DNA from: Candidatus Saccharimonadota bacterium
Lineage (GTDB): Bacteria > Patescibacteriota > Gracilibacteria > Absconditabacterales > Absconditicoccaceae
DNA length: 32,000 bases
Assembly (NCBI GenBank): GCA_965231145.1
Contig: OZ246420.1
Location: forward strand, 150,001 to 182,000
Direction: 5' to 3'
This document shows, in pieces, positions 1,306 to 30,933 of the stretch. Position 1 is the first letter of the stretch. Every line of letters begins with the position of its first letter. The notes under the pieces were generated by a model. The model saw only the letters and a program-made list of their open reading frames with translations, was not told the DNA's origin and made no database searches. The position numbers and the translations under genes were made by a program.

Positions 1306-1385
1306 TTATCTATCGATTCTTCAATAGAAAATGGAAAATAAAAAATATTTTCTATCTTCTATTTTTTATTAGATATTGAGTAGCG

Positions 1386-3239: not shown

Positions 3240-3249
3240 TAACTATTTC

Positions 3250-3323
3250 AGCAATTAGATATTAGATTTTAGATTATAGCAATCTTACATTTGCCAACAT
3301 CTAACATCTATAATCGAATTGCT
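3250..3323 (+). repeat. long heptamer-periodic hairpin, AGAT family, copy 1 (after alaS)
   Basis: The 5' arm is AGCAATT AGATATT AGATTTT AGATTAT AGCA (3250..3281). The 3' arm is TGCCAAC ATCTAAC ATCTATA ATCGAAT TGCT (3292..3323). Arms are 32 nt with about 7 mismatches. It starts 11 nt after the alaS stop and has no clear U-tract. Confidence 0.6.
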
Positions 3324-3433
3324 ATTAGATAGCTTAAGCAAATGTTGTCTAGTAAAAAATAAGCTGTAAGGCTTGTTTTTTTATATATGTTTTGTATGCT
3401 CGGAAGGATTTATCTGCATAATTTTTGGCTTCC

Positions 3434-4678
3434 ATGAATTATAAAAAATGAATGCTTGTAGTAGTTGCAGGAGCAAGTATGATCCTTGCTGGTTGCGGTA
3501 ATTCGTCAAAAAACATGACTTTCCAAGATACATACAATGCTTTTTTCGATAGTCATATGAGTAAAGCAGTAGATATGTTCAATCATTTTGCTATGGCTCC
3601 GGCTATCGCCGAAGAAGCAAGATACGATCTTAGTGGTTCCGTGATGAGCGGTGTTGTGGTTCGCGCTATGATAGGTGCAAAATCAACCGTGGTAAATAAG
3701 GGAGCAGATACAGAAAGTACTGTGTCTATAAGCGGTAGCATCGTGCAGCCAGATGTTGATGATACGATCAATCTTGATTCGAATATCCTTTTGAAAATGA
3801 TCAGCGGACAGTCGTATATAAATCTTTCAAAACTTTCTCTCACGTCAGCAAAGGGAAACCCGCAGATTAGTATGATCGGAGCGTTCTCTGCTATACTGAC
3901 AAACAAGTGGATCGCGATAACAAGTTCAGGATCTACTATGGCTCCACAGTCATTCAATCTTGCAACTATGTATACGCTTCCGTCTCAGATGCTTCAGTCG
4001 CTTAAGGCTCATCCTATCTTTGTAGAAAAGAGTAAAGAGATTGTAGATGGAAATCCTGTCTATCATGTATCGCTCGACACAACGGGTCTGTATCTTGCAG
4101 CAAAGGAAATAGTTTCTACTGAAGCAGTAAAGACTCTTCTCAGAGGAGAGGAACTTACAGATGCAGAGCTCTGGGAGTGGGCACAAGCTTTCGTAGCTAA
4201 CTCAGCTTTTGATGGAACACTGACAGCAGTAAGCAAAAAAGAAGTGATACTTACGATCAACTCTCTCAATCTTGATAAAACAAGTATTGCACAGGGAGTT
4301 ATCAATCAGGATGATGCGCAGTTCACAGTAATTGATACACCACTTGTGGGTACAGGAGATATCTCTTCGGCTTCTTCTCAGTCAGCCATTGTTGCAACAG
4401 CGTCTCTTACAGAAAAAGGAGATACAACTGTCCTTACAGTTTCTGCTCCTCAGGAACCTCTTGATCTTACAGTAAGTGTTGATATGAAGAAGGCGACAAG
4501 TAATTCGATCTCATATCTTTTTAGTCTTATGCTTCGTCATCCATCTGTATCATTGGATCTCAATGGTGATGCGCAGATAGAAAAAACAGAGCCGGTCGTG
4601 ATCGAAGCTCCATCGTCGTTTGAGACAATTGACTCACTCCTTGGAGGATTTGGTTCTCTTCTCGGTGGAACTGAGTAA
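3434..4678 (+). CDS. hypothetical lipoprotein
   Basis: MNYKK(G)MLVVVAGASMILAGCGNSSK is a signal peptide with the lipobox LAGC. The ORF-track start at 3452 is extended to the ATG at 3434 through the in-frame TGA at 3449; 3452 remains possible. The mature part is Ser/Thr-rich. Stop is TAA at 4676..4678. No family recognised. Confidence 0.7.
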
Positions 4679-4786
4679 CAAACTAACAAAAAAAGATATA
4701 GTAAGAGACAGAGACATAGGCCGATCCTATATCTATATCTAGAACGTATGTCTATTAGTTTTAGTTAATTAGTAAGGTAGTTTTTC

Positions 4787-6226: not shown

Positions 6227-6240
6227 TTAAAATCGTAAAA

Positions 6241-6803: not shown

Positions 6804-6818
6804 CTAATTAACTTATAG

Positions 6819-6890
6819 GCAGTTAGATATTGGATATTAGATATTGGCAAGGTGCTACAATCTAATATCTATAATCTAATTGCTTTTTTA
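6819..6890 (+). terminator. long heptamer-periodic hairpin, AGAT family, copy 2, with U-tract
   Basis: GCAGTT AGATATT GGATATT AGATATT GGCA (6819..6849), loop AGG, TGCTACA ATCTAAT ATCTATA ATCTAAT TGC (6853..6883), then TTTTTTA. The 31-bp stem has 4 mismatches and 3 G-U pairs that only pair in the + strand RNA. Confidence 0.75.
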
Positions 6891-7867: not shown

Positions 7868-7904
7868 CCGTTGTTATCAACTTATAATTACCTATACTTT
7901 GAAC

Positions 7905-8891: not shown

Positions 8892-8908
8892 ACATGCAAA
8901 CTTACAAG

Positions 8909-8973
8909 GCAGTTGGATTTTAGATGTTAGATTATAGCATCTTGCCAATATCTAAAATCTAACATCTAATTGC
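8909..8973. terminator. long heptamer-periodic hairpin, AGAT family, copy 3, between convergent holA and the DUF721-like gene
   Basis: GCAGTT GGATTTT AGATGTT AGATTAT AGCA (8909..8939), loop TCT, TGCCAAT ATCTAAA ATCTAAC ATCTAAT TGC (8943..8973), then TATTTTG. The stop codon of the - strand gene (8973..8975) abuts the 3' arm. Confidence 0.7.
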
Positions 8974-9251
8974 TATTTTGTAACAATGTTTTTCAACGTA
9001 TAAGCTAGCCCAAATTTCACTAGTTCCTTATTGATTTCTCCGAGCAGTTGAGGCTTTTCCCTGTAGAGTAGTATGCAGGCTTCCCTTGGTAGTCATTTCA
9101 CAAAGAGGATATTGTGTCTTATGTAACCATCGCATTCAGCGATGCTATAGCGTTGTTTGATAATACGAAAACAAACACTGATGACAGTGAGAGAACTTCC
9201 TACTTTCTTTGAAAGAGAGCTTTTCTTGAGTAATTGCTTAATGTCTACCAT
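8973..9251 (-). CDS. DUF721 (DciA-like) family protein
   Basis: Only visible with TGA=Gly (TGA at 9096..9098): MVDIKQLLKKSSLSKKVGSSLTVISVCFRIIKQRYSIAECDGYIRHNILFVK(G)LPREACILLYREKPQLLGEINKELVKFGLAYTLKNIVTK, 92 aa, TAG stop. The C-terminal half resembles the DUF721 pattern (L.V.v.s..wa.eL......l...in..l). From memory only. Confidence 0.5.
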
Positions 9252-9322: not shown

Positions 9323-9790
9323 ATGAAGAAATTATTGTTGCTTATAGCAGTTTTGGGTTTTCAGGTTTGAGTTTTTAGTTCTGTTGTGGGAGCAGTTGAG
9401 AATACTTTTGATATCATTCCAAAGAGTGAAACAGATGTGTCGAGTGATGTGACTGAAATCGGGAAAGCCGGAGGAAAAGTCTGGGATAAGCTCAATGAAA
9501 AAGCGAAGCAGTATGAAGAAAATGATGATATCGGTGCGCAGTTTGCAAGTGGTGCATTCACGTGGAATACACTTCTGAATTACGTGATTTATCTGGTAAG
9601 ATTTCTTTCGCAGTTGGCATTGGTGATAGGAGCAACTATGATCATAGTCGCATGATACAAGTATGCGTCTGCATCTTTTACTGGGAAGCCATCAGGTTCG
9701 GAAGACGTAAGGAATGCCATTGTAGGTGTGCTTATTGTGATATTTTCATATGCACTTATCAGGATACTTACGGAAGCGTTCCTCACTTAA
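9323..9790 (+). CDS. small secreted two-TM protein resembling the CPR T4SS-pilin-like (TrbC/VirB2-like) family
   Basis: The ATG at 9323 is joined to ORF 9386..9655 and beyond via TGAs at 9368 and 9653. Signal peptide is MKKLLLLIAVLGFQV(G)VFSS. The C-terminal module is LLNYVIYLVRFLSQLALVIGATMIIVA(G)YKYASASFTGKPSGSEDVRNAIVGVLIVIFSYALIRILTEAF, that is TM, short polar loop, TM. Stop is TAA at 9788..9790. Confidence 0.7.
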
Positions 9791-10604: not shown

Positions 10605-12176
10605 ATGATGAAGAAAAAAGCACCAAAAATATTGCAGGATATCCTTATAGAAAGGATAGGCTATGGCGGAGTAGGTATTGCGAGGCATGCTGATGGGCGT
10701 AAGATCCTCGTGTCATGAGGAGTGCTTCCTGGTATGAAAGCTGCTATTACTGTGACAAAGCAGAAGAAAGATTATACAGAAGGAAGACTCTATCATGTGC
10801 AATCATATGATCCCTCTTTTACGTTAGATCCAACTGCAGTTCGTTGTCCGCATTATGTGTTCAATCCGCAGGACGGATTGACTCATGACGGTATGGGCGA
10901 GCATAAGGTTGGCTGTGGAGGATGTAAGTGGCAAATTCTTACGTATGAGAAACAGCTTATCCTTAAGCAGCAAATTGTCAAAGATAGCTTTAGGCATTTG
11001 AGAGACGTAGTTGAAAAGGTTGGCATGAACTCTTTCGTTCCTGCTCCAGAAGTATTCAATTATAGAAACAAGATAGAGTATAGTTTTGGTAAATATATTA
11101 CCAATGAAGGAAATGACAATCAGCATTGGCAGCTTGGTTTTCATAAGCAGTGACAATTTTCTAAAGTCATTGATGTTGATCAATGCTATCTTGTTTCAGA
11201 GGAAGCAACAAAGCTGTATCGTACGCTCAAATCGATGCTGTTAGCATCGGGACTTATCGTCCATGATTCAAAGACACATGTAGGAATTCTTCGTCATCTT
11301 GTGGTGCGTGAAGGAAGAAACACGGGAAATTTTTTGGTCAATCTTAGTGTAGCAGAGGGTCAATTGGCTGAGCTTGGTATGAGCGAAACATGGGAGTCTT
11401 TTAAAAAGGTGCTTGCTGCGGATGAGTATCTGACAAAGACTATTACAAGCTTTGTCATTACGGTAAATGATGGGCTTGCTGATGTTGTACATGGGCAGGA
11501 TATTCATACCTATGAGCTCTGGGGAGAGGGACATATGTATGAGAAACTCATATTCAATTCACAAATCACAGAGCACAATTCACAATGAAATGAGGATGAA
11601 AATAATACTATAGAAGCGAGTTTCCGTGTGTCGCCATTTTCTTTTTTCCAAACGAATACTCTTGGTGCGCAAAGGCTATTCCAAACAGCAATGGATGCGG
11701 TAGGCAAGGTTGATGGGCATATCTTAGATCTTTACTGCTGAACAGGAACTATCGGTATAAGTTTCCTGAAGGCGGGGATGTGAGATAAAGTATTTGGTAT
11801 TGAAATAGTACCTGATGCTATTGTCGATGCTGTATGGAATGCAAAGATCAATGGTCTCGCAGAGCAGACATACTTTGTTGCATGAAAAGCAGAAGATCTT
11901 ATATCTCGTGATGAGTACATTGCGAGGCATCTTGAAAAGATGCAGCTCGTGATAGTAGATCCACCTCGTGATGGGCTCCATAAAACAGTCGTGGAGTTTC
12001 TTCTCAATCTGAAAAAAAATCATAATTTCACATTGCTCTATATTTCGTGTAATCCTGTAACTATGGCACGCGATATAGAACTTCTTGCTGGAGAGCATTA
12101 TGCGTTACAATCGCTGCAACCTGTTGATATGTTTCCGCATACACATCATGTAGAGATGGTGGGAGTTTTGCGCTAA
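10605..12176 (+). CDS. RumA/RlmD-type 23S rRNA (uracil-C5)-methyltransferase with TRAM domain and Fe-S cysteines
   Basis: Fragments 10722.., 11235.. and 11940.. share one frame from ATG 10605, with 6 in-frame TGAs. Features are the TRAM-like IERIGYGGVGIARH, the cysteine cluster CPHY...GCGGCKWQ, SPFSFFQTN, the SAM motif LDLYC(G)TGTIGISF (TGA at 11739), DPPRDGL and ISCNPVT. Stop is TAA at 12174..12176. Confidence 0.92.
11556..11596 (+). repeat. in-frame 41-nt heptamer-array element inside the rlmD-like CDS (copy A)
   Basis: AATTCAC AAATCAC AGAGCAC AATTCAC AATGAAATGAGGA encodes NSQITEHNSQ(G)NE. It is 35/41 identical to 17845..17885 in the unrelated DUF58 gene, in the same reading frame and with the same in-frame TGA. 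Confidence 0.7.
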
Positions 12177-14130: not shown

Positions 14131-14204
14131 TTCTCAATTTGAAATGTTGAATGTTAAATGAAAATAACAATATATTCAACGCTTAACATTTGTCATTTAA
14201 CATT
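14131..14204 (+). repeat. heptamer-periodic hairpin, TTCTCAATT family, copy 1
   Basis: It starts directly after the TAA stop: TTCTCAATTTGAAATG TTGAATG TTAAATG AAAATAA... AATGTTAAATGA (14150..14161) pairs perfectly with TCATTTAACATT (14193..14204). The first 19 nt including the stop match 17524..17542 at 17/19. Confidence 0.55.
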
Positions 14205-14214
14205 ATAAGCTAAT

Positions 14215-14829
14215 ATGAGTTATAGAAAAACAAAGATACCTGTTGTGTCGAGTAAGGAAGGATACAACGACGCGGCTGCCCTCTATAAGTCGTTTCATAA
14301 AGAGCTGGCGACGTATGATAAAGGATTGTTTCAAAGATTTCTGCCGAGAGAAATAACAGGTATGTCGGTTTTAGATATTGGTGCTGGTGATAGTAGGCTG
14401 TATAAGTATTTTATGGATAGACAGGTTCGCTATGTTGCTATGGATGTAGCAGAAAGGCTTCTCAAGCGTTCGCCGTCGCGTGTGGAAAAAGTAGTGGCAG
14501 ATGCAGAAGAGGTATGGCCTTTTGAAGATGAAACATTTGATATAGAGCTTTGTTTCTTTGTCCTGCTTCATATCAGCGATATAAGACATTTTTTCAAAGA
14601 AGCCTATAGAACACTGCGTTCAGGCGGTAAAATTATTGTGCTTCAGAACTATCAAAGACGCAGTTATGAGTTTGAGTTGCCAGGCAAAAAGAAATACAAG
14701 ATAGAAGATCGGTCTCATAGTCACAATGAGATCATGAAAGCAGGTGAAAAAGCATTTTTCACTTGAGAGTATCTGCCTCTTGTAGAAAAGGAAAACCAGA
14801 TCGGAATGCTGTACTGTTTTACTAAATAG
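14215..14829 (+). CDS. class I SAM-dependent methyltransferase
   Basis: Motif I is VLDIGAGDSRL, followed by an acidic post-I residue (AMDV), LCFFVLLHI and GGKIIV. The TGA at 14764 is read through to TAG at 14827..14829. Confidence 0.85.
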
Positions 14830-14830
14830 A

Positions 14831-14890
14831 TGAAAGATTAGAGGGCAAAGTTAAAAAGGTACCTTGTTTAATTCTGCTCTCTGCTCTTTC
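14831..14890 (+). terminator. heptamer-periodic hairpin after the methyltransferase gene
   Basis: TGAAAGATTAGAGGGCAAAGTTAAAAAGGT (14831..14860) pairs with ACCTTGTTTAATTCTGCTCTCTGCTCTTTC (14861..14890) around a GTAC apex, followed by ACCTTTTAG. The 3' arm contains CTGCTCT CTGCTCT. Confidence 0.6.
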
Positions 14891-14979
14891 ACCTTTTAGT
14901 TTATTAGTTGTCACAGATAGTTGTAATTTGCGTTAGTAAGTATATGCTAGAGGGGTCATTTTGGTAACTATGCTTGAGT

Positions 14980-15549
14980 ATGAAACAATATGATAAAGCA
15001 TTTTTAAAAAAATTACAGCAGCGCGAAGATACTGCTTTTACGATACTGTACAATGATACCGTTGATACTTTTTTCCGTTATTTGAAGACAACATACTTTC
15101 TTGATGAGAGTGAAATAGATGATCTTATTTCATCGTTTTATGTGAAGCTTTGGGAAAATCTTAAACGTCTAGATGTGAATGCGTCACTGAGTGGATGGAT
15201 GCGAACCATCTTTAAGAACCTTACGAAGGACTACTTCAAGGCGCATAGAGCAACTCATTTTAGTCAGATGAGTTCGTGAGCGGGTGATGATGAATGAGTA
15301 TCAACGTTTGAGGAAAATATTTCTTCAGAGATTGATGTATCAGAAATGTTTTCTGTAAGTTGGGAATATGAAAAAATTGTTGCAGGTATTGATGCGTTGG
15401 AAGGAGATTATAAAGAAGTGCTCTACCTGAAATATGTAGAAGAAAAATCATATGAAGAAATTGCTGCTATATTGAAAAGCACAGAGCAAACTATTAGGCA
15501 GAAAGTCTCAAGATGACTTAAAAAACTCAAGAGTGGGCTTTCTTCGTAG
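14980..15549 (+). CDS. sigma-70 family RNA polymerase sigma factor (two-domain, ECF-like)
   Basis: There are three in-frame TGAs. The region 2-like segment is FFRYL...SSFYVKLWENLKRLD...WMRTIFKNLTKDYFK. The region 4 HTH is YLKYVEEKSYEEIAAILKSTEQTIRQKVSR(G)LKKLK. ATG at 14980 is preferred over TTG at 14974. Stop is TAG at 15547..15549. Confidence 0.85.
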
Positions 15550-17526: not shown

Positions 17527-17588
17527 TTCTCAATTCGAAACGCTCAATTCTCAATTGTATTGAGCACTGAGAATTTAGCATTTAGAAT
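17526..17588 (+). repeat. heptamer-periodic hairpin, TTCTCAATT family, copy 2 (after murE)
   Basis: ATTCTCA ATTCGAA ACGCTCA ATTCTCA AT (17526..17555), loop TGT, ATTGAGC ACTGAGA ATTTAGC ATTTAGAAT (17559..17588). Heptad periodicity already starts in the murE C-terminal codons (GCAGAGA GCGAAGA GCAAAAT). Confidence 0.55.
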
Positions 17589-17598
17589 ACTACAAGAA

Positions 17599-18267
17599 AT
17601 GTTGGACTATTTTCTGAAGATCAAAAAACTGCTATGAGTTCGTGGCAACGGGCAATTTTCTTCGTTGTTTCATGGTGCTGGAGTAGATATTGCCGAAAAT
17701 AGACAATACTCGACATGAGATGAAAAGCGCTCTATTAACCGGAAAATGTCAGCAAAGTACGACCAGATGTTTGTAAATTTGTTCCATGAGGAAAAAGCGA
17801 TAGATGTGTATGTGTGTTGCGATATTAACTATAATTGGAGATACAAAGCACAAATCACAAAGCACAGGTCACAATGAAATAAGGAGTTATTCGCTACTTT
17901 CTTTGCGGAGCTCACGTCGTATTTTCAGGAGAAAAAAGCTCATATTACATGATGGCTAGGTGAAGAGATCTTTTTGTCGCTCGAGAAACCTGTAAGTCAA
18001 AAGGGGTTTCTCGAGGCATGCGACAAAAAAATCGGACGTGCGCTGCCTCTCTATACTTCTAAGCTTTGATCTTTGCTTGCTCAGCAGCGCGCGGTAGCTA
18101 AGAAAAGACTTATTATCATCGTTTCAGACTTTCTCAGCTATGGTGAAGAAGAAAAGCGTCAGGTGAATGTGCTTCGTCAGAAGCATGAGGTTATACTATT
18201 ACGTATGCCGATGGATGAGAAGAAAGTGTCGGCTGATATGCTATCATTGGAAGTTTTTTGAGTATAA
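17599..18267 (+). CDS. DUF58 domain protein (vWA-like, Bat/MoxR-associated family)
   Basis: ATG at 17599 and 6 in-frame TGAs. The DUF58 core reads FHGAGVDIAENRQYST(G)DEKRSINRKMSAKYDQMFVNLFHEEKAIDVYVCCDI, then LIIIVSDFL. The final TGA at 18259 is read through to TAA at 18265..18267. Confidence 0.85.
17845..17885 (+). repeat. in-frame 41-nt heptamer-array element inside the DUF58 CDS (copy B)
   Basis: AAAGCAC AAATCAC AAAGCAC AGGTCAC AATGAAATAAGGA encodes KAQITKHRSQ(G)NK and is 35/41 identical to 11556..11596. Confidence 0.7.
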
Positions 18268-18380: not shown

Positions 18381-18394
18381 GCTTATTAATTCAT

Positions 18395-18438
18395 AATTCA
18401 CATTTCACAAAGCATAATGCTCATATGATGAGTGAATT
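18395..18438 (-). repeat. heptamer-periodic hairpin in the predicted 5' leader of pre-tRNA-Leu
   Basis: The + strand reads AATTCAC ATTTCAC AAAGCAT AATGCTC ATATGAT GAGTGAATT. The outer stem is AATTCAC/GTGAATT. It lies between the predicted promoter (18442..18469) and the tRNA 5' end (18380). Confidence 0.5.
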
Positions 18439-19053: not shown

Positions 19054-19066
19054 CTAACTAAATGTA

Positions 19067-19131
19067 GCAATTAGATTTCAGATGTTAGATGTTAGCAAGA
19101 TGCTGTAATCTAACATCTATTTGCCTTTTAT
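19067..19131 (+). terminator. long heptamer-periodic hairpin, AGAT family, copy 4 (after ssb)
   Basis: GCAATT AGATTTC AGATGTT AGATGTT AGCA (19067..19097), loop AGA, TGCTGTA ATCTAAC ATCTATTTGC (19101..19124), then CTTTTATT. Confidence 0.7.
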
Positions 19132-19177
19132 TATCAGCAACTAAGTGTATATGTGAATATTTTCTAGACGCAACGAT

Positions 19178-21715: not shown

Positions 21716-22819
21716 ATGACGAAGACGTTTGCAATAGAAACAAGTTGTGATGATACTTCTGTATGAATTGTCTGCTATGACAATGGTGTTTTTTCTGTAG
21801 AGAAGCTCCTTGCATATTCGCAAATTCAAGATCATCAAAAATTTGGTGGTGTGGTTCCAGAGGTAGCATATAGACTTCACTCTGAAAAGATGATACATTT
21901 ACTCCAAGAGATCGGGCTGGAGTCTATCTCAGGGATTGACTCTATAAGTGTGACAACTCATCCAGGGTTAGGCTGATCGCTTCTCGTGGGAAAGACTGCT
22001 GCGGAGATGCTCGGCGTTCATTACAGTAAAAAAGTCATAGGTGTAAACCACATTTACGGGCATATTTTTTCACTCTTATTGGAAAGAAATATCGATCAAC
22101 TTCCATTTCCATGGGTTGTGTTGACGGCCTCTGGGGGACACAACGAAATTTACTTCGTAAATTTAATTCAAAATTCAAAATGTAAAATGCAAAATGAAAG
22201 CATTCCTTATTATTTAGAGGACTTCGAAATAAAAAAGTTGGGCCAAACATTAGATGATGCGGCTGGTGAATGTTTTGATAAGGTTGCTCGTATGCTTGGA
22301 TGACCATATCCTGGCGGCGTCTGGATAGGACAAAAAGCGCTTCAGGGTAAGCCAAATGAAAGCGTCCAATTTAAGCGTATTTTTCTTGACCATGATAAAT
22401 ATGAGTTCTCATTTTCTGGCATGAAATCGCAGGTTCATTACTTGCTCAGTACTTTCGAGAAAGAGTGAGTCACATTGACTGAGCAGCTTATCTGTGACAT
22501 TGCTTATGAGTTTCAGGAAGCTGTGGTAGAGGTGTTAGCAAAGAAACTTGTGCAAGCAGCTCATGCCCATGGCGCAAAGACCATGGGGATAGCGGGAGGA
22601 GTTTCGGCAAATGATAGATTATTCCAATATGCTGCAGAGTATGCACAAAAAAGATTTTCTGCGAAAGAGATTATTACTACCAATGAAAATACTGTGGTGA
22701 TCTCTGAGGCATTTGACGGACAAACGCTACCACTCATGCGTCCCATGAAAAAGGTCTATTCGACTGATAATGCTGCGATGATAGGAGTGGTAGGGTTACT
22801 TACCGATATATCGAGATAA
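21716..22819 (+). CDS. tsaD: tRNA N6-adenosine threonylcarbamoyltransferase TsaD
   Basis: One frame with 4 in-frame TGAs. Motifs are FAIETSCDDTSV(G)IV, GGVVPEVAYRLH, VTTHPGLG(G)SLLVG, VNHIYGHIF, TASGGHNE, LGQTLDDAAGECFDKVARMLG(G)PYPGG, GIAGGVSAN and STDNAAMIG. Stop is TAA at 22817..22819. Confidence 0.95.
22165..22206 (+). repeat. in-frame tandem heptamer array inside tsaD
   Basis: AATTCAA AATTCAA AATGTAA AATGCAA AATGAAA GCATTCC encodes part of NLIQNSKCKMQNESIP. It lies between the GGH motif and LG.T.DDAAGE, where the spacer is about 23 aa here against about 8 aa in the E. coli sequence as I recall it. Confidence 0.6.
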
Positions 22820-29610: not shown

Positions 29611-30933
29611 ATGCCATTGCTTCTGTGGCTTTTTCTTCTGGGAACGTCTCTCTACCATGTGTTGGTTACGGTAGTTGTTTATGGCATGTGACGGTCTCAT
29701 GCTGAAGTGCTTGTTATCATCAGAGATGGTTTGTGGCTCCTGTTTTTTCTTGTATCATGCGTCATACATAGAAAGCTTATAGTAGCGTATCTACAGCGTA
29801 CATGGTACTTGCGGCTGGTGTTTATCGCGCTTTGAACACTTGGGGTCGTCGTTTCTTGCTTTCATCAAAAACTTCCAGGTGATATCATTATAGGTGCGAA
29901 ATATGGTATGCAGTTTTTTGTTATTTTTCTTATGGCTATCTTCTTCTGATATGTCTTTTCGCAGCAGAAAGAAAAATATTATCCTTGGTTGAAAAAGATT
30001 TTTTTGATGATAGTAGTCGTGTTGATCGTGTGATTTGTCTGGCAAGCAGCAAAGATGCTTATGCCAGAGTTCTTTTATAGTATAGGTTATGCACCGCTAG
30101 GGGATTGGGTGTTTGGGCAAAATCCACCATTGTATTATCTTACCTGACCTGGATGATATGCAAGACTCAGTTGAATTTTCTCAGGACCAAATAACTATGG
30201 TTATCTTATGGTTGCACTCTTCGGTTTTTGGTGGCGGTATCTTCGCACTCGTGTACAGCATAAAACAACTAAAACGCTCTTACGATTGCTTTTTGGACTT
30301 TCTGTAGTTGGCACTCTTTCCAGAGGAGCTATCATATGAATATTTCTTCAGATTATAGCACTTTCATTTGTGTTATTGCATGCAAAGCGCAAGTATATCT
30401 GGTCGCTTATAGTTGTTGCAATTCTTGCGGTGGGAGTATTGAGTATTGTGAAGCGATGATCGACGTTAGAGCATGTGCGTACAAAGTTTGGAAGTCTTTC
30501 GTATGTGCGGTCAAATCCATGGGGCTATGGTCTTGGCTCGTCGGGTCCGAGCATCCATACATGACATGGCAATATACTTCCTGAAAATTTCTTTGTGCAG
30601 ATCCTGATCGACATAGGTATCCCAGGTTTGCTCTTATGGTTATTCTTTTGGTACCTTGTCTTACATAGCATGCGATCTAATAGAGCAAAGGTGAAAGATG
30701 AAAGAGCAAAGTTACATAAAGAAGAATTGTTGACTAGCAATCAGCAGACAAACCTATGAGATAACACTTTGTTAATATGTCTTTCATTTAGTTTTCTATG
30801 ATTGCTTCTCGAGGGGATGTTCTTACATGTCTTTGAAGACAGTATGGTGAATTATTGGTTCTTTATACTATGGGGAATAGTGTACGGATACGTACAAAGA
30901 AGTGAAAACTGAAAGAGTAGAGAGCAGAATTAA
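29611..30933 (+). CDS. O-antigen ligase / Wzy_C domain polytopic membrane protein
   Basis: One frame is open from 29503 to TAA at 30931..30933 with about 13 in-frame TGAs. ATG at 29611 was chosen as the start. It has many TM helices. Motifs are ARLS(G)IFSGPNNYGYLM, VGTLSRGAII(G), NPWGYGLGSSG and H(T)(G)HGNILPENFFVQILIDIGIPGLLLW, matching the Wzy_C pattern (R..g.f..pN; SRg; H.HN.yl..l.e.Gi.G). Confidence 0.85.
30681..30721 (+). repeat. in-frame heptamer array inside the Wzy_C gene, related to the 14831 hairpin arm
   Basis: TAGAGCA AAGGTGA AAGATGA AAGAGCA AAGTTAC encodes NRAKVKDERAKLHK in a loop between TM helices. 30692..30714 matches 14831..14853 at 20/23. Confidence 0.45.

Follow-up and report, generated by a model that had tools for sequence, protein, structure and literature searches.

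The locus and its host

The region analyzed here (the window) is a stretch of bacterial DNA 32,000 nucleotides long with a G+C content of 39%, in which all genes between positions 1386 and 22819 lie on the plus strand. Among them are alaS, holA and ssb, and these names, given in the original prediction, are supported by Pfam hits precomputed for these genes in matching contigs. The total length of long open reading frames in the window increases threefold once TGA is read through, and conserved glycine positions in the window genes are TGA codons. Because the SAM-binding motif of a RumA-like methyltransferase gene (11940-11960) reads LYC-TGA-TGTIG, TGA is most likely a sense codon in this organism that specifies glycine, as in genetic code 25. 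The HolA and SSB homologues are labelled Absconditabacteria, Absconditicoccaceae, Gracilibacteria or Patescibacteria, and the host is a TGA-recoded (code 25) bacterium of the Absconditabacteria/Gracilibacteria type.

Syntenic DNA from six relatives (73-90% HolA identity) was collected via HolA homologues, and DNA from a further three (L146, L147 and L148; 88-90% SSB identity) via SSB homologues. This sample amounts to approximately 100 kb from relatives, and approximately 38 kb of the host genome was covered (the window plus approximately 6 kb beyond it).

A family of long hairpins with heptameric arms

The original prediction described four hairpins of one architecture, and all four are present on the plus strand of the window (c1 to c4; Table 1), where the homologous hairpins span 3250-3323, 6818-6884, 8908-8974 and 19066-19125. 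They do belong to one repeat family: the architecture is common to all four, and their imperfection is patterned as had been proposed. In register, the element reads (A/G)GCA(A/G)TT, (RGATNTY)x3, RGCA, a loop, TGCY, (RNNATCT)x3 and AATTGC, with a total length of approximately 65-90 bp and arms of three degenerate 7 nt units. The loop measures 3 nt in c2 to c4 and 10 nt in c1, and c4 departs from the scheme in having two RNNATCT heptamers instead of three and in ending with ATTTGC instead of AATTGC. The predicted 7 nt periodicity is real in both arms. Units differ at positions 1 and 5-6, and their GAT/ATC cores are invariant at 7 nt spacing. Within individual copies the units are partially homogenized, such that c2 carries three xGATATT units and c4 two AGATGTT units. 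A fifth copy lies in L119, a metagenome contig of a close relative, and all five copies are extragenic. The 25 nt left-arm pattern yields seven matches when up to three mismatches are permitted and both arms are counted, compared with 0.01 expected in shuffled sequences.

Table 1. Positions, sequences, covariance-model scores and folding energies of the hairpins discussed in the text
Feature	Position	Strand	Context	Sequence	Score (bits)	Sense (kcal/mol)	Antisense (kcal/mol)
c1	3250..3323	+	after alaS	AGCAATT-(AGATATT AGATTTT AGATTAT)-AGCA, 10-nt loop, TGCC-(AACATCT AACATCT ATAATCG)-AATTGCT	78.5	-22.6	-26.5
c2	6818..6889	+	p148-vwa spacer	GGCAGTT-(AGATATT GGATATT AGATATT)-GGCA AGG TGCT-(ACAATCT AATATCT ATAATCT)-AATTGC, then TTTTTT	85.1	-32.6	-20.9
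c3	8908..8979	+	between holA and convergent small gene	GGCAGTT-(GGATTTT AGATGTT AGATTAT)-AGCA TCT TGCC-(AATATCT AAAATCT AACATCT)-AATTGC, then TATTTTG	82.7	-26.6	-21.5
c4	19066..19131	+	after ssb, in ssb-lepB spacer	AGCAATT-(AGATTTC AGATGTT AGATGTT)-AGCA AGA TGCT-(GTAATCT AACATCT)-ATTTGCC, then TTTTATT	65.5	-19.4	-20.0
L119 copy						-28.9	-38.8
Ordinary small terminator	3354..3386	+	40 nt downstream of c1	A-run, AAGC-tgtaag-GCTT, T-run			
Unrelated heptamer-phased hairpin	1323..1371	+	alaS leader	AGAAAAT GGAAAAT AAAAAAT / ATTTTCT ATCTTCT ATTTTTT			
Unrelated heptamer-phased hairpin	14136..14204	+	after gene ending 14130	GAAATGT TGAATGT TAAATG / AACATTT GTCATTT AACATT			
Unrelated heptamer-phased hairpin	17533..17588	+	after murE-like gene; -15.5 kcal/mol, z -3.1	TTCTCAA TTCGAAA CGCTCAA TTCTCAA / TTGAGCA CTGAGAA TTTAGCA TTTAGAA			

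Beyond the heptamers, the copies have in common the non-repeat ends GCARTT/AATTGC, the apex RGCA/TGCY and a position-specific ATAATCT unit, and c2, c3 and the L119 copy also share an outer flank, CTTAYAAG / TWTTTKRTAA. All copies but c4 have an outer stem of 5-6 bp; it reads CTATTT/AGATAG in c1 (giving this copy an extent of approximately 3243-3333), CTTATA/TATAAG in c2 and TTACAA/TTGTAA in c3. Since this stem brackets the T-tract in c2 and c3, the T-tract is part of the element. T-rich tails with 6-7 T in 10 nt follow c2 (TTTTTTATAA), c3 (TATTTTGTAA) and c4 (CTTTTATTAT), and the base of the stem that adjoins the tract is formed by G-C/C-G pairs. Copy c1 lacks a T-tail and is followed by TATTAGATAG.

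The RNA folds computed for c1 to c4 have energies of -19.4 to -32.6 kcal/mol (z = -2.8 to -8.0), of which that of c2 is the strongest (-32.6 kcal/mol, z -8.0). Their stems have 27-32 paired positions, a G+C content of 26-34% that is limited to the closing GC and the apex GCA/TGC, and conserved internal loops. They had been proposed to be about three times as long as ordinary terminators, and the measured ratio is two- to threefold (27-32 paired positions versus 8-14 in the terminators at 6237, 12919 and 16044). In their respective spacers, c2, c3 and c4 are the sole strong hairpins.

In L130 and L131, Logan assemblies of the same organism from independent runs, c4 has an identical sequence, and position 1 of each contig falls in the loop of c3 (window 8944). 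This identity, together with the ending of both contigs in the c3 loop, indicates that the hairpins are real and that they break assemblies.

The hairpins are recent insertions at gene ends

The placement of the copies directly after stop codons was correctly predicted, with GCARTT beginning 11, 15, 17 and 13 nt past TAA in c1 to c4, respectively. A search with a covariance model recovered no family members in the approximately 100 kb sampled from nine relatives, versus four in the approximately 38 kb of the host genome; the approximately 6 kb of the same genome beyond the window contains no further copies.

Orthologous sites in relatives are informative for all four copies. After alaS, L133 and L136 possess only a small terminator composed of an A-run, a hairpin and a T-run. 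The small terminator downstream of c1 (Table 1) has orthologues in these AAGC/AGCTCTTG...TTTTTTT hairpins of L136 and L133, and is probably the real alaS terminator, conserved in relatives. Because c1 sits between the alaS stop codon and a small terminator that is also found in L133 and L136, c1 represents an insertion of approximately 90 bp. The p148-vwa spacer is 95 nt long with c2 in the window and only 20-27 nt long in L133 and L136, which identifies c2 as an insertion as well. The site of c3 is occupied in L139 (90% HolA identity) and L142 (76%) by two ordinary GC-rich terminators, one per strand, and in L140 (85% HolA identity) by a long repeat hairpin of another kind whose apex is likewise GGCA...TGCT. 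Finally, the ssb-lepB spacer of L146, L147 and L148 is 43-62 nt long and has no hairpin.

The neighboring vwa-holA spacer (window 7868-7904, 37 nt) contains no terminator, c2 lying one gene upstream instead, and an ordinary GC-rich terminator is found in this spacer in L139 (540-600; 90%) and L140 (2150-2200; 85%).

The reciprocal situation is provided by L119, which is syntenic with window 14215-15549 and carries its copy directly after the methyltransferase stop codon, where the window has none. This copy has the opposite polarity, scoring 80.6 bits when read antisense to its two flanking genes versus 61.6 bits on the sense strand, and its T-rich side is upstream relative to these genes. Thus, there is a presence/absence polymorphism: relatives lack the element at the four sites occupied in the window, and the window lacks it at the site occupied in L119. 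The insertions are recent and were made into short spacers directly downstream of stop codons. Both polarities relative to the neighboring genes occur, although with five copies the 4:1 ratio is weak as a statistic. The empty sites in relatives and the reciprocal L119 copy of opposite polarity indicate that the family is young, polymorphic and independent of orientation.

The traces that known mobile elements leave were sought at these sites. No consistent target-site duplication of fixed length is present; flanking direct repeats of c1, c2, c3 and the L119 copy occur at chance levels (182-473 of 500 shuffles). The exception is c4, which is flanked by a direct repeat identical at 10 of 11 positions (AACTAAATGTA at 19056-19066 and AACTAAGTGTA at 19138-19148) that is matched in 19 of 500 shuffles, an uncorrected value. 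No transposase, RAYT included, is visible in the approximately 38 kb of host genome, where the window open reading frames were checked. The element ends, (A/G)GCA(A/G)TT and AATTGC(T), carry no GTAG/CGTC tag in any copy. A BLAST search with c2 against phage and plasmid collections gave no match, as did a comparison of two family-specific patterns with viral contigs.

We also considered an outward promoter in the right arm and rejected this candidate: TATAAT occurs in c1, c2 and the L119 copy, but it lies 12 or 20 nt from any -35-like hexamer, and a promoter scan is empty there.

With somewhat better than even confidence, we interpret the family as a lineage-specific, REP/MITE-like dispersed palindrome, composed of degenerate heptamers and lodged in terminator slots, that would terminate transcription or protect 3′ ends.

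Seven-nucleotide phasing is a general property of the host's intergenic hairpins

The phasing of the arms is shared by intergenic hairpins of the host that are unrelated in sequence. When the four copies are removed from the spacers, an excess at lag 7 is still observed (0.327 versus approximately 0.285, z = 5.8). The window contains 20 period-7 segments, versus 1.2 in shuffled sequences and 1-5 segments for periods 5, 6, 8 and 9. Their density is 0.63 per kb here, as against 0.05-0.24 per kb in the relatives. Three hairpins with other units are listed in Table 1, and another heptamer-phased hairpin lies just outside the window (L144, 5345-5403). In the spacer that precedes the methyltransferase gene, relatives have different hairpins or heptamer runs.

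Several observations were made alongside. A hairpin with a T-run in the alaS leader, resembling an attenuator, occurs in the window (1323-1371), in L136 (3700-3740) and in L133 (3100-3150); the sequences are unrelated, with (RGAAAAT)x3 arms here and AAAACCTAG...CTAGGTTTTT in L136 and L133. A second family of long-hairpin repeats, AGATATAG-GTAMGAGAYAGAGAYATAGG ... CCTMTATCTATATCTA..TATGTCT, is represented after the gene ending at 4678 (window 4694-4750) and, at a different locus, after a p148-like gene in L140 (565-640; an 85% relative). Period-7 runs are present in coding sequence also, namely (AAAATKY)n in tsaD (window 22164-22200), (GAAAGNN)n in an O-antigen-ligase-like gene (window 30685-30712) and a GTTTT-type run in a signal-peptide region (window 9359-9380) that is common to L139 and L140. 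A heptamer-phased module of approximately 40 nt, CACAAATCACA(G/A)AGCACA..TCACAATGAAAT(G/A)AGGA, occupies the same frame in two unrelated genes, those for the RumA-like methyltransferase (11553-11600) and a DUF58 protein (17838-17885), where it encodes the peptides SQITEHNSQGNED and AQITKHRSQGNKE. Like the palindromic elements of Rickettsia, this module resembles a small repeat that has been inserted in frame. Related TTCACA runs are found in the spacer at 18386-18410.

One account of such phasing is that the hairpins grew where they stand. Pre-existing hairpins or spacers would have been remodelled in place by slippage in 7 nt steps and by intrastrand template switching, and the copies would resemble one another because of gene conversion or mutational bias rather than transposition. 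Phased hairpins with unrelated units elsewhere in the genome fit this account, as do the alaS-leader and pre-methyltransferase hairpins, which are heptamer-phased here and different in relatives. The partial homogenization of units in c2 and c4, the loss of one unit from c4 and the inconsistency of target-site duplications also point this way. However, the copies share their non-repeat ends, apex and ATAATCT unit, with the outer flank in addition in c2, c3 and L119, and a separate origin of all these common parts is unlikely. Moreover, the c1, c2 and c4 spacers of relatives have no hairpin or another one. Local growth of the family is therefore unlikely as a whole, although of the alternatives it retains the most credit.

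A cassette that stops translation in all frames was also entertained, because TAG or TAA every 7 nt in c1 to c4 stops all three. The TTCTCAA, RGAAAAT and GAATGTT hairpins have no such all-frame stops, and a stop cassette therefore cannot explain the phasing.

Heptamer-phased hairpins in other phyla

Matches to the left-arm pattern were found in species-representative genomes at more than 115 loci, a lower bound. Among the matches listed are representatives of Cyanobacteria, Acidobacteriota, Chloroflexota, Bacteroidota, Gammaproteobacteria and several CPR groups, and of 116 RGATNTY arrays from other phyla, 30 have a complementary array within 120 nt downstream, versus 1 upstream. The orientations of the flanking reading frames (+|+ 6, -|- 9, convergent 5, divergent 2) suggest that the cross-phylum hairpins have no polarity preference, a distribution derived from crude stop-to-stop ORFs that are too rough to rely on.

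In MAGs of Pyrinomonadaceae and other Acidobacteriota (L005, L015, L020, L034, L036, L040 and L096), a dispersed hairpin family has (AGATGTY)n arms, a conserved loop ACACCACYKGCRTGTCTTGA and then (CTARCATCY)n. This family, found repeatedly both inside single MAGs and from one MAG to another, is the counterpart in Acidobacteriota of the host's element. A hairpin with the same ends and unit as the host's, GCAATT-(AGATGTT)x2-AGATGTG...(CTAACAT)x2-CTAATTGC, is present in metagenome contigs of an unrelated organism with 49% G+C (L122, 1358-1420; identical in L126) and scores 56 bits.

It is conceivable that heptamer-phased hairpins, those of the RGATNTY type included, form a single undescribed class that spans phyla and is made or read by common machinery working in 7 nt steps; we consider this rather less probable than local growth. 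The machinery might be a slippage register of the polymerase or primase combined with symmetrization of palindromes, or a phased single-strand binder such as a cold-shock-domain protein. If this were true, a cross-phylum process would be overwriting ordinary terminators and leader hairpins in the host lineage, and terminators that are tunable by a protein or fast-evolving could result. As summarized in PMC4679880, no other long simple repeat is as abundant in prokaryotes as heptamers, for which polymerase slippage is proposed as the cause.

Base pairing of the copies is not under detectable selection

The original prediction took G·U pairs that form only in the plus-strand RNA as a sign of function at the RNA level. 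The five copies were aligned and examined for compensatory change, and none was observed above the level obtained with shuffled 3′ partners (covariation 0.094 versus 0.121 shuffled; paired cells 79% versus 83%). Alignment pairs 13/64, 27/50 and 28/49 are unpaired in all five copies and pair 14/63 in four of five. At pair 30/47, A·C, G·U and A-U are seen, but never G-C. The variable positions are thus conserved mismatches without compensation. The G·U pairs do exist (four in c2, three in c3, one in c4 and none in c1, which has three A·C instead), and their overall excess over A·C, 10 to 4, is weak. The sense strand is not consistently favored, given that c1, c4 and the L119 copy attain lower energy as antisense RNA (Table 1). 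Comparison of the two strands across the five copies indicates that the asymmetry belongs to the element and not to the direction of transcription. The copies reveal no detectable selection for RNA base pairing, and the argument from G·U pairs to RNA-level function is not supported: covariation is not in excess, the counts are only 10 versus 4, and c1 and the L119 copy contradict it.

These results bear directly on whether the hairpins constitute a conserved, structured cis-regulatory RNA in the sense transcript, with G·U pairs marking the functional strand. The common polarity of the four window copies relative to the upstream gene would agree with such an RNA, as would the sense folds of c2 and c3, which are better by 5-12 kcal/mol, and the G·U to A·C ratio. 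Nevertheless, covariation does not exceed that of shuffles, the mismatches are conserved and 30/47 is never G-C, c1 and the L119 copy fold better in antisense, and the orthologous sites of all relatives lack the element, which also has no Rfam match. We consider a cis-regulatory RNA improbable.

Candidate readers of the repeated units

The invariant GAT/ATC cores at 7 nt spacing, with variation confined to positions 1 and 5-6, raise the question of whether the arms are a phased binding array. A protein with a 7 nt footprint, either a cold-shock-domain protein bound once per heptamer or a HutP-like protein, would then make the hairpins conditional terminators. A HutP-like reader recognizes (UAG-N4)x3, and cold-shock-domain proteins can melt terminator hairpins. 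The left arm reads (UAGAUNU)x3, and RGATNTY arrays recur as hairpins in several phyla. In addition, CspB binds heptamer repeats with one protein per unit, according to work cited in PMC4679880. Opposing this reading, several units are UGG and not UAG, a candidate protein is absent from the window, and the element is dispensable in close relatives. The other 7 nt phased hairpins of this genome use quite different, unrelated units, so that no single sequence-specific reader is likely to be the cause of the phasing. A binding array is, if anything, slightly less probable than a cis-regulatory RNA.

By far the least credible reading takes the arms for inverted pairs of DNA uptake signals that also serve as terminators, a double role known from Neisseria and Haemophilus. 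The host group depends on DNA uptake, and DUS/USS terminators likewise place a short word and its inverted copy downstream of genes. In the rest of the window, however, the heptamer is no commoner than expected (AGATNTT 40 versus 42 expected, TTAGAT 11 versus 31), and within this stretch an uptake word was rejected.

Probable function of the dispersed palindromes

We return to the interpretation of the family as a dispersed palindrome in terminator slots. Judged by sequence features, the copies probably terminate transcription or protect RNA 3′ ends. Their location in 3′ regions agrees with the original prediction, and a terminator-like role is plausible there. This role as terminator or 3′-end barrier is inferred from the slot that the copies have in common with the terminators of relatives, from the U-rich tract and from the closing G-C pairs. 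A copy would be transcribed at the end of the upstream gene, and the transcript would form an imperfect hairpin, long and rich in A and U, whose closing G-C pairs lie beside the element's own U-rich tract. This hairpin could act as an intrinsic terminator or as a REP-like barrier to 3′ exonucleases, and either role would render insertion at gene ends harmless or useful. The 7 nt phasing most likely stems from the origin and upkeep of the arms, whereby slippage would occur in 7 nt steps and a change in one arm would be copied to the other. The conserved mismatches would keep the palindrome imperfect, so that a long palindrome may be tolerated.

The copies need not all behave alike. Copy c3 stands where relatives have ordinary terminators. 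In contrast, c1 has no U-tract and lies upstream of a separate ordinary terminator, indicating that not every copy is needed for termination. Copy c2 ends 15 nt before the next start codon, and the genes around this site are probably co-transcribed in relatives, where they are 20-27 nt apart. Within such a probable operon an efficient terminator would cut off vwa and holA, and some copies must therefore permit read-through. The AU-rich stems (26-30% G+C) with internal loops also count against the reading as a textbook terminator.

To our knowledge, bacteria of the candidate phyla radiation have hardly been studied for dispersed repeats or for transcription signals. Here, a repeat family has recently colonized gene ends and at one site has taken the place of the ordinary terminators found in close relatives. 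The positions of terminators shift from one close relative to the next, and the presence of c3 in place of their terminators suggests that terminators in these small genomes turn over fast and may arrive as portable units. The family also offers a compact and datable case for the open question of why 7 nt units dominate the long simple repeats of prokaryotes and pair as inverted arrays. On a practical level, the hairpins break short-read assemblies and in this way contribute to fragmented genomes in the host group. The system is of moderate interest, mainly for the rapid turnover of terminators in a CPR lineage and for the fact, so far without explanation, that heptamer-phased hairpins recur in different phyla.

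Comparison with known repeat elements

The suggestion that these hairpins fall outside described classes holds insofar as Rfam returned nothing on the elements, either at gathering thresholds or at E <= 1. It does not hold with respect to repeat elements, because inverted heptamer pairs have been described in Xanthomonas (PMC4692102) and gene-end palindromes of the REP/REPIN and MITE kinds are well known.

Like intrinsic terminators, c2, c3 and c4 present a hairpin followed by a U-rich tract right after stop codons, with G-C closing pairs, and c3 occupies the terminator site of relatives. Unlike intrinsic terminators, which have a short GC-rich stem of approximately 5-14 bp, they have a stem two to three times longer with 26-34% G+C and conserved internal loops; furthermore, c1 lacks a U-tract and the L119 copy has its T-rich side upstream.

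Similarity to bacterial MITEs of the Correia, RUP, ERIC and Nezha types is evident in the short, non-autonomous palindromic insertion and in the presence/absence differences between close relatives. MITEs with terminator-like hairpins can alter transcription of neighboring genes, as the host's element may also do. The host's element differs from MITEs in that it is shorter than most, is built of tandem units, and has neither a consistent target-site duplication nor a known partner IS.

With REP sequences and REPINs, the element shares the form of a dispersed imperfect palindrome, an overall size like that of REPINs, an extragenic position usually just past stop codons, the lack of a consistent target-site duplication, occurrence in either orientation and lineage specificity (PMC12642595, PMC3337134). 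REP sequences are high in copy number, and the count here is four in approximately 38 kb. REP hairpins stabilize RNA 3′ ends without terminating transcription (PMC12642595). Unlike REP sequences, the element has no GTAG/CGTC tag (compare PMC3733652), is AU-rich rather than GC-rich and has an internal 7 nt periodicity. REPINs, which are inverted REP doublets, are mobilized by RAYT transposases, whereas none was seen for this element in the approximately 38 kb of genome covered.

The heptamers themselves recall the inverted pairs of heptameric simple sequence repeats, including GGGAATC in Xanthomonas and STRR, TAACTGA and GGGGAYT in cyanobacteria, Beggiatoaceae and Bacteroidetes, in their intergenic tandem 7 nt units, opposed arrays and lineage-specific abundance (PMC4692102, PMC4679880). 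Xanthomonas has 70-75 GGGAATC arrays, arranged in convergent inverted pairs that are capable of forming stem-loops and have no known function (PMC4692102). The host's element likewise has tandem 7 nt units on both strands, arranged convergently as 3+3 (3+2 in c4). Unlike these pairs, however, it has three units per arm that are degenerate at fixed positions, it carries the non-repeat ends GCARTT/AATTGC and the fixed apex RGCA/TGCY and is dispersed as a whole unit, and its units are AT-rich with no G-quadruplex possible and reside in a CPR host. The hairpins are thus no new RNA class; they are a variant of known bacterial repeat elements, for which heptameric-repeat inverted pairs and REP/REPIN/MITE-like palindromes are the known kinds.
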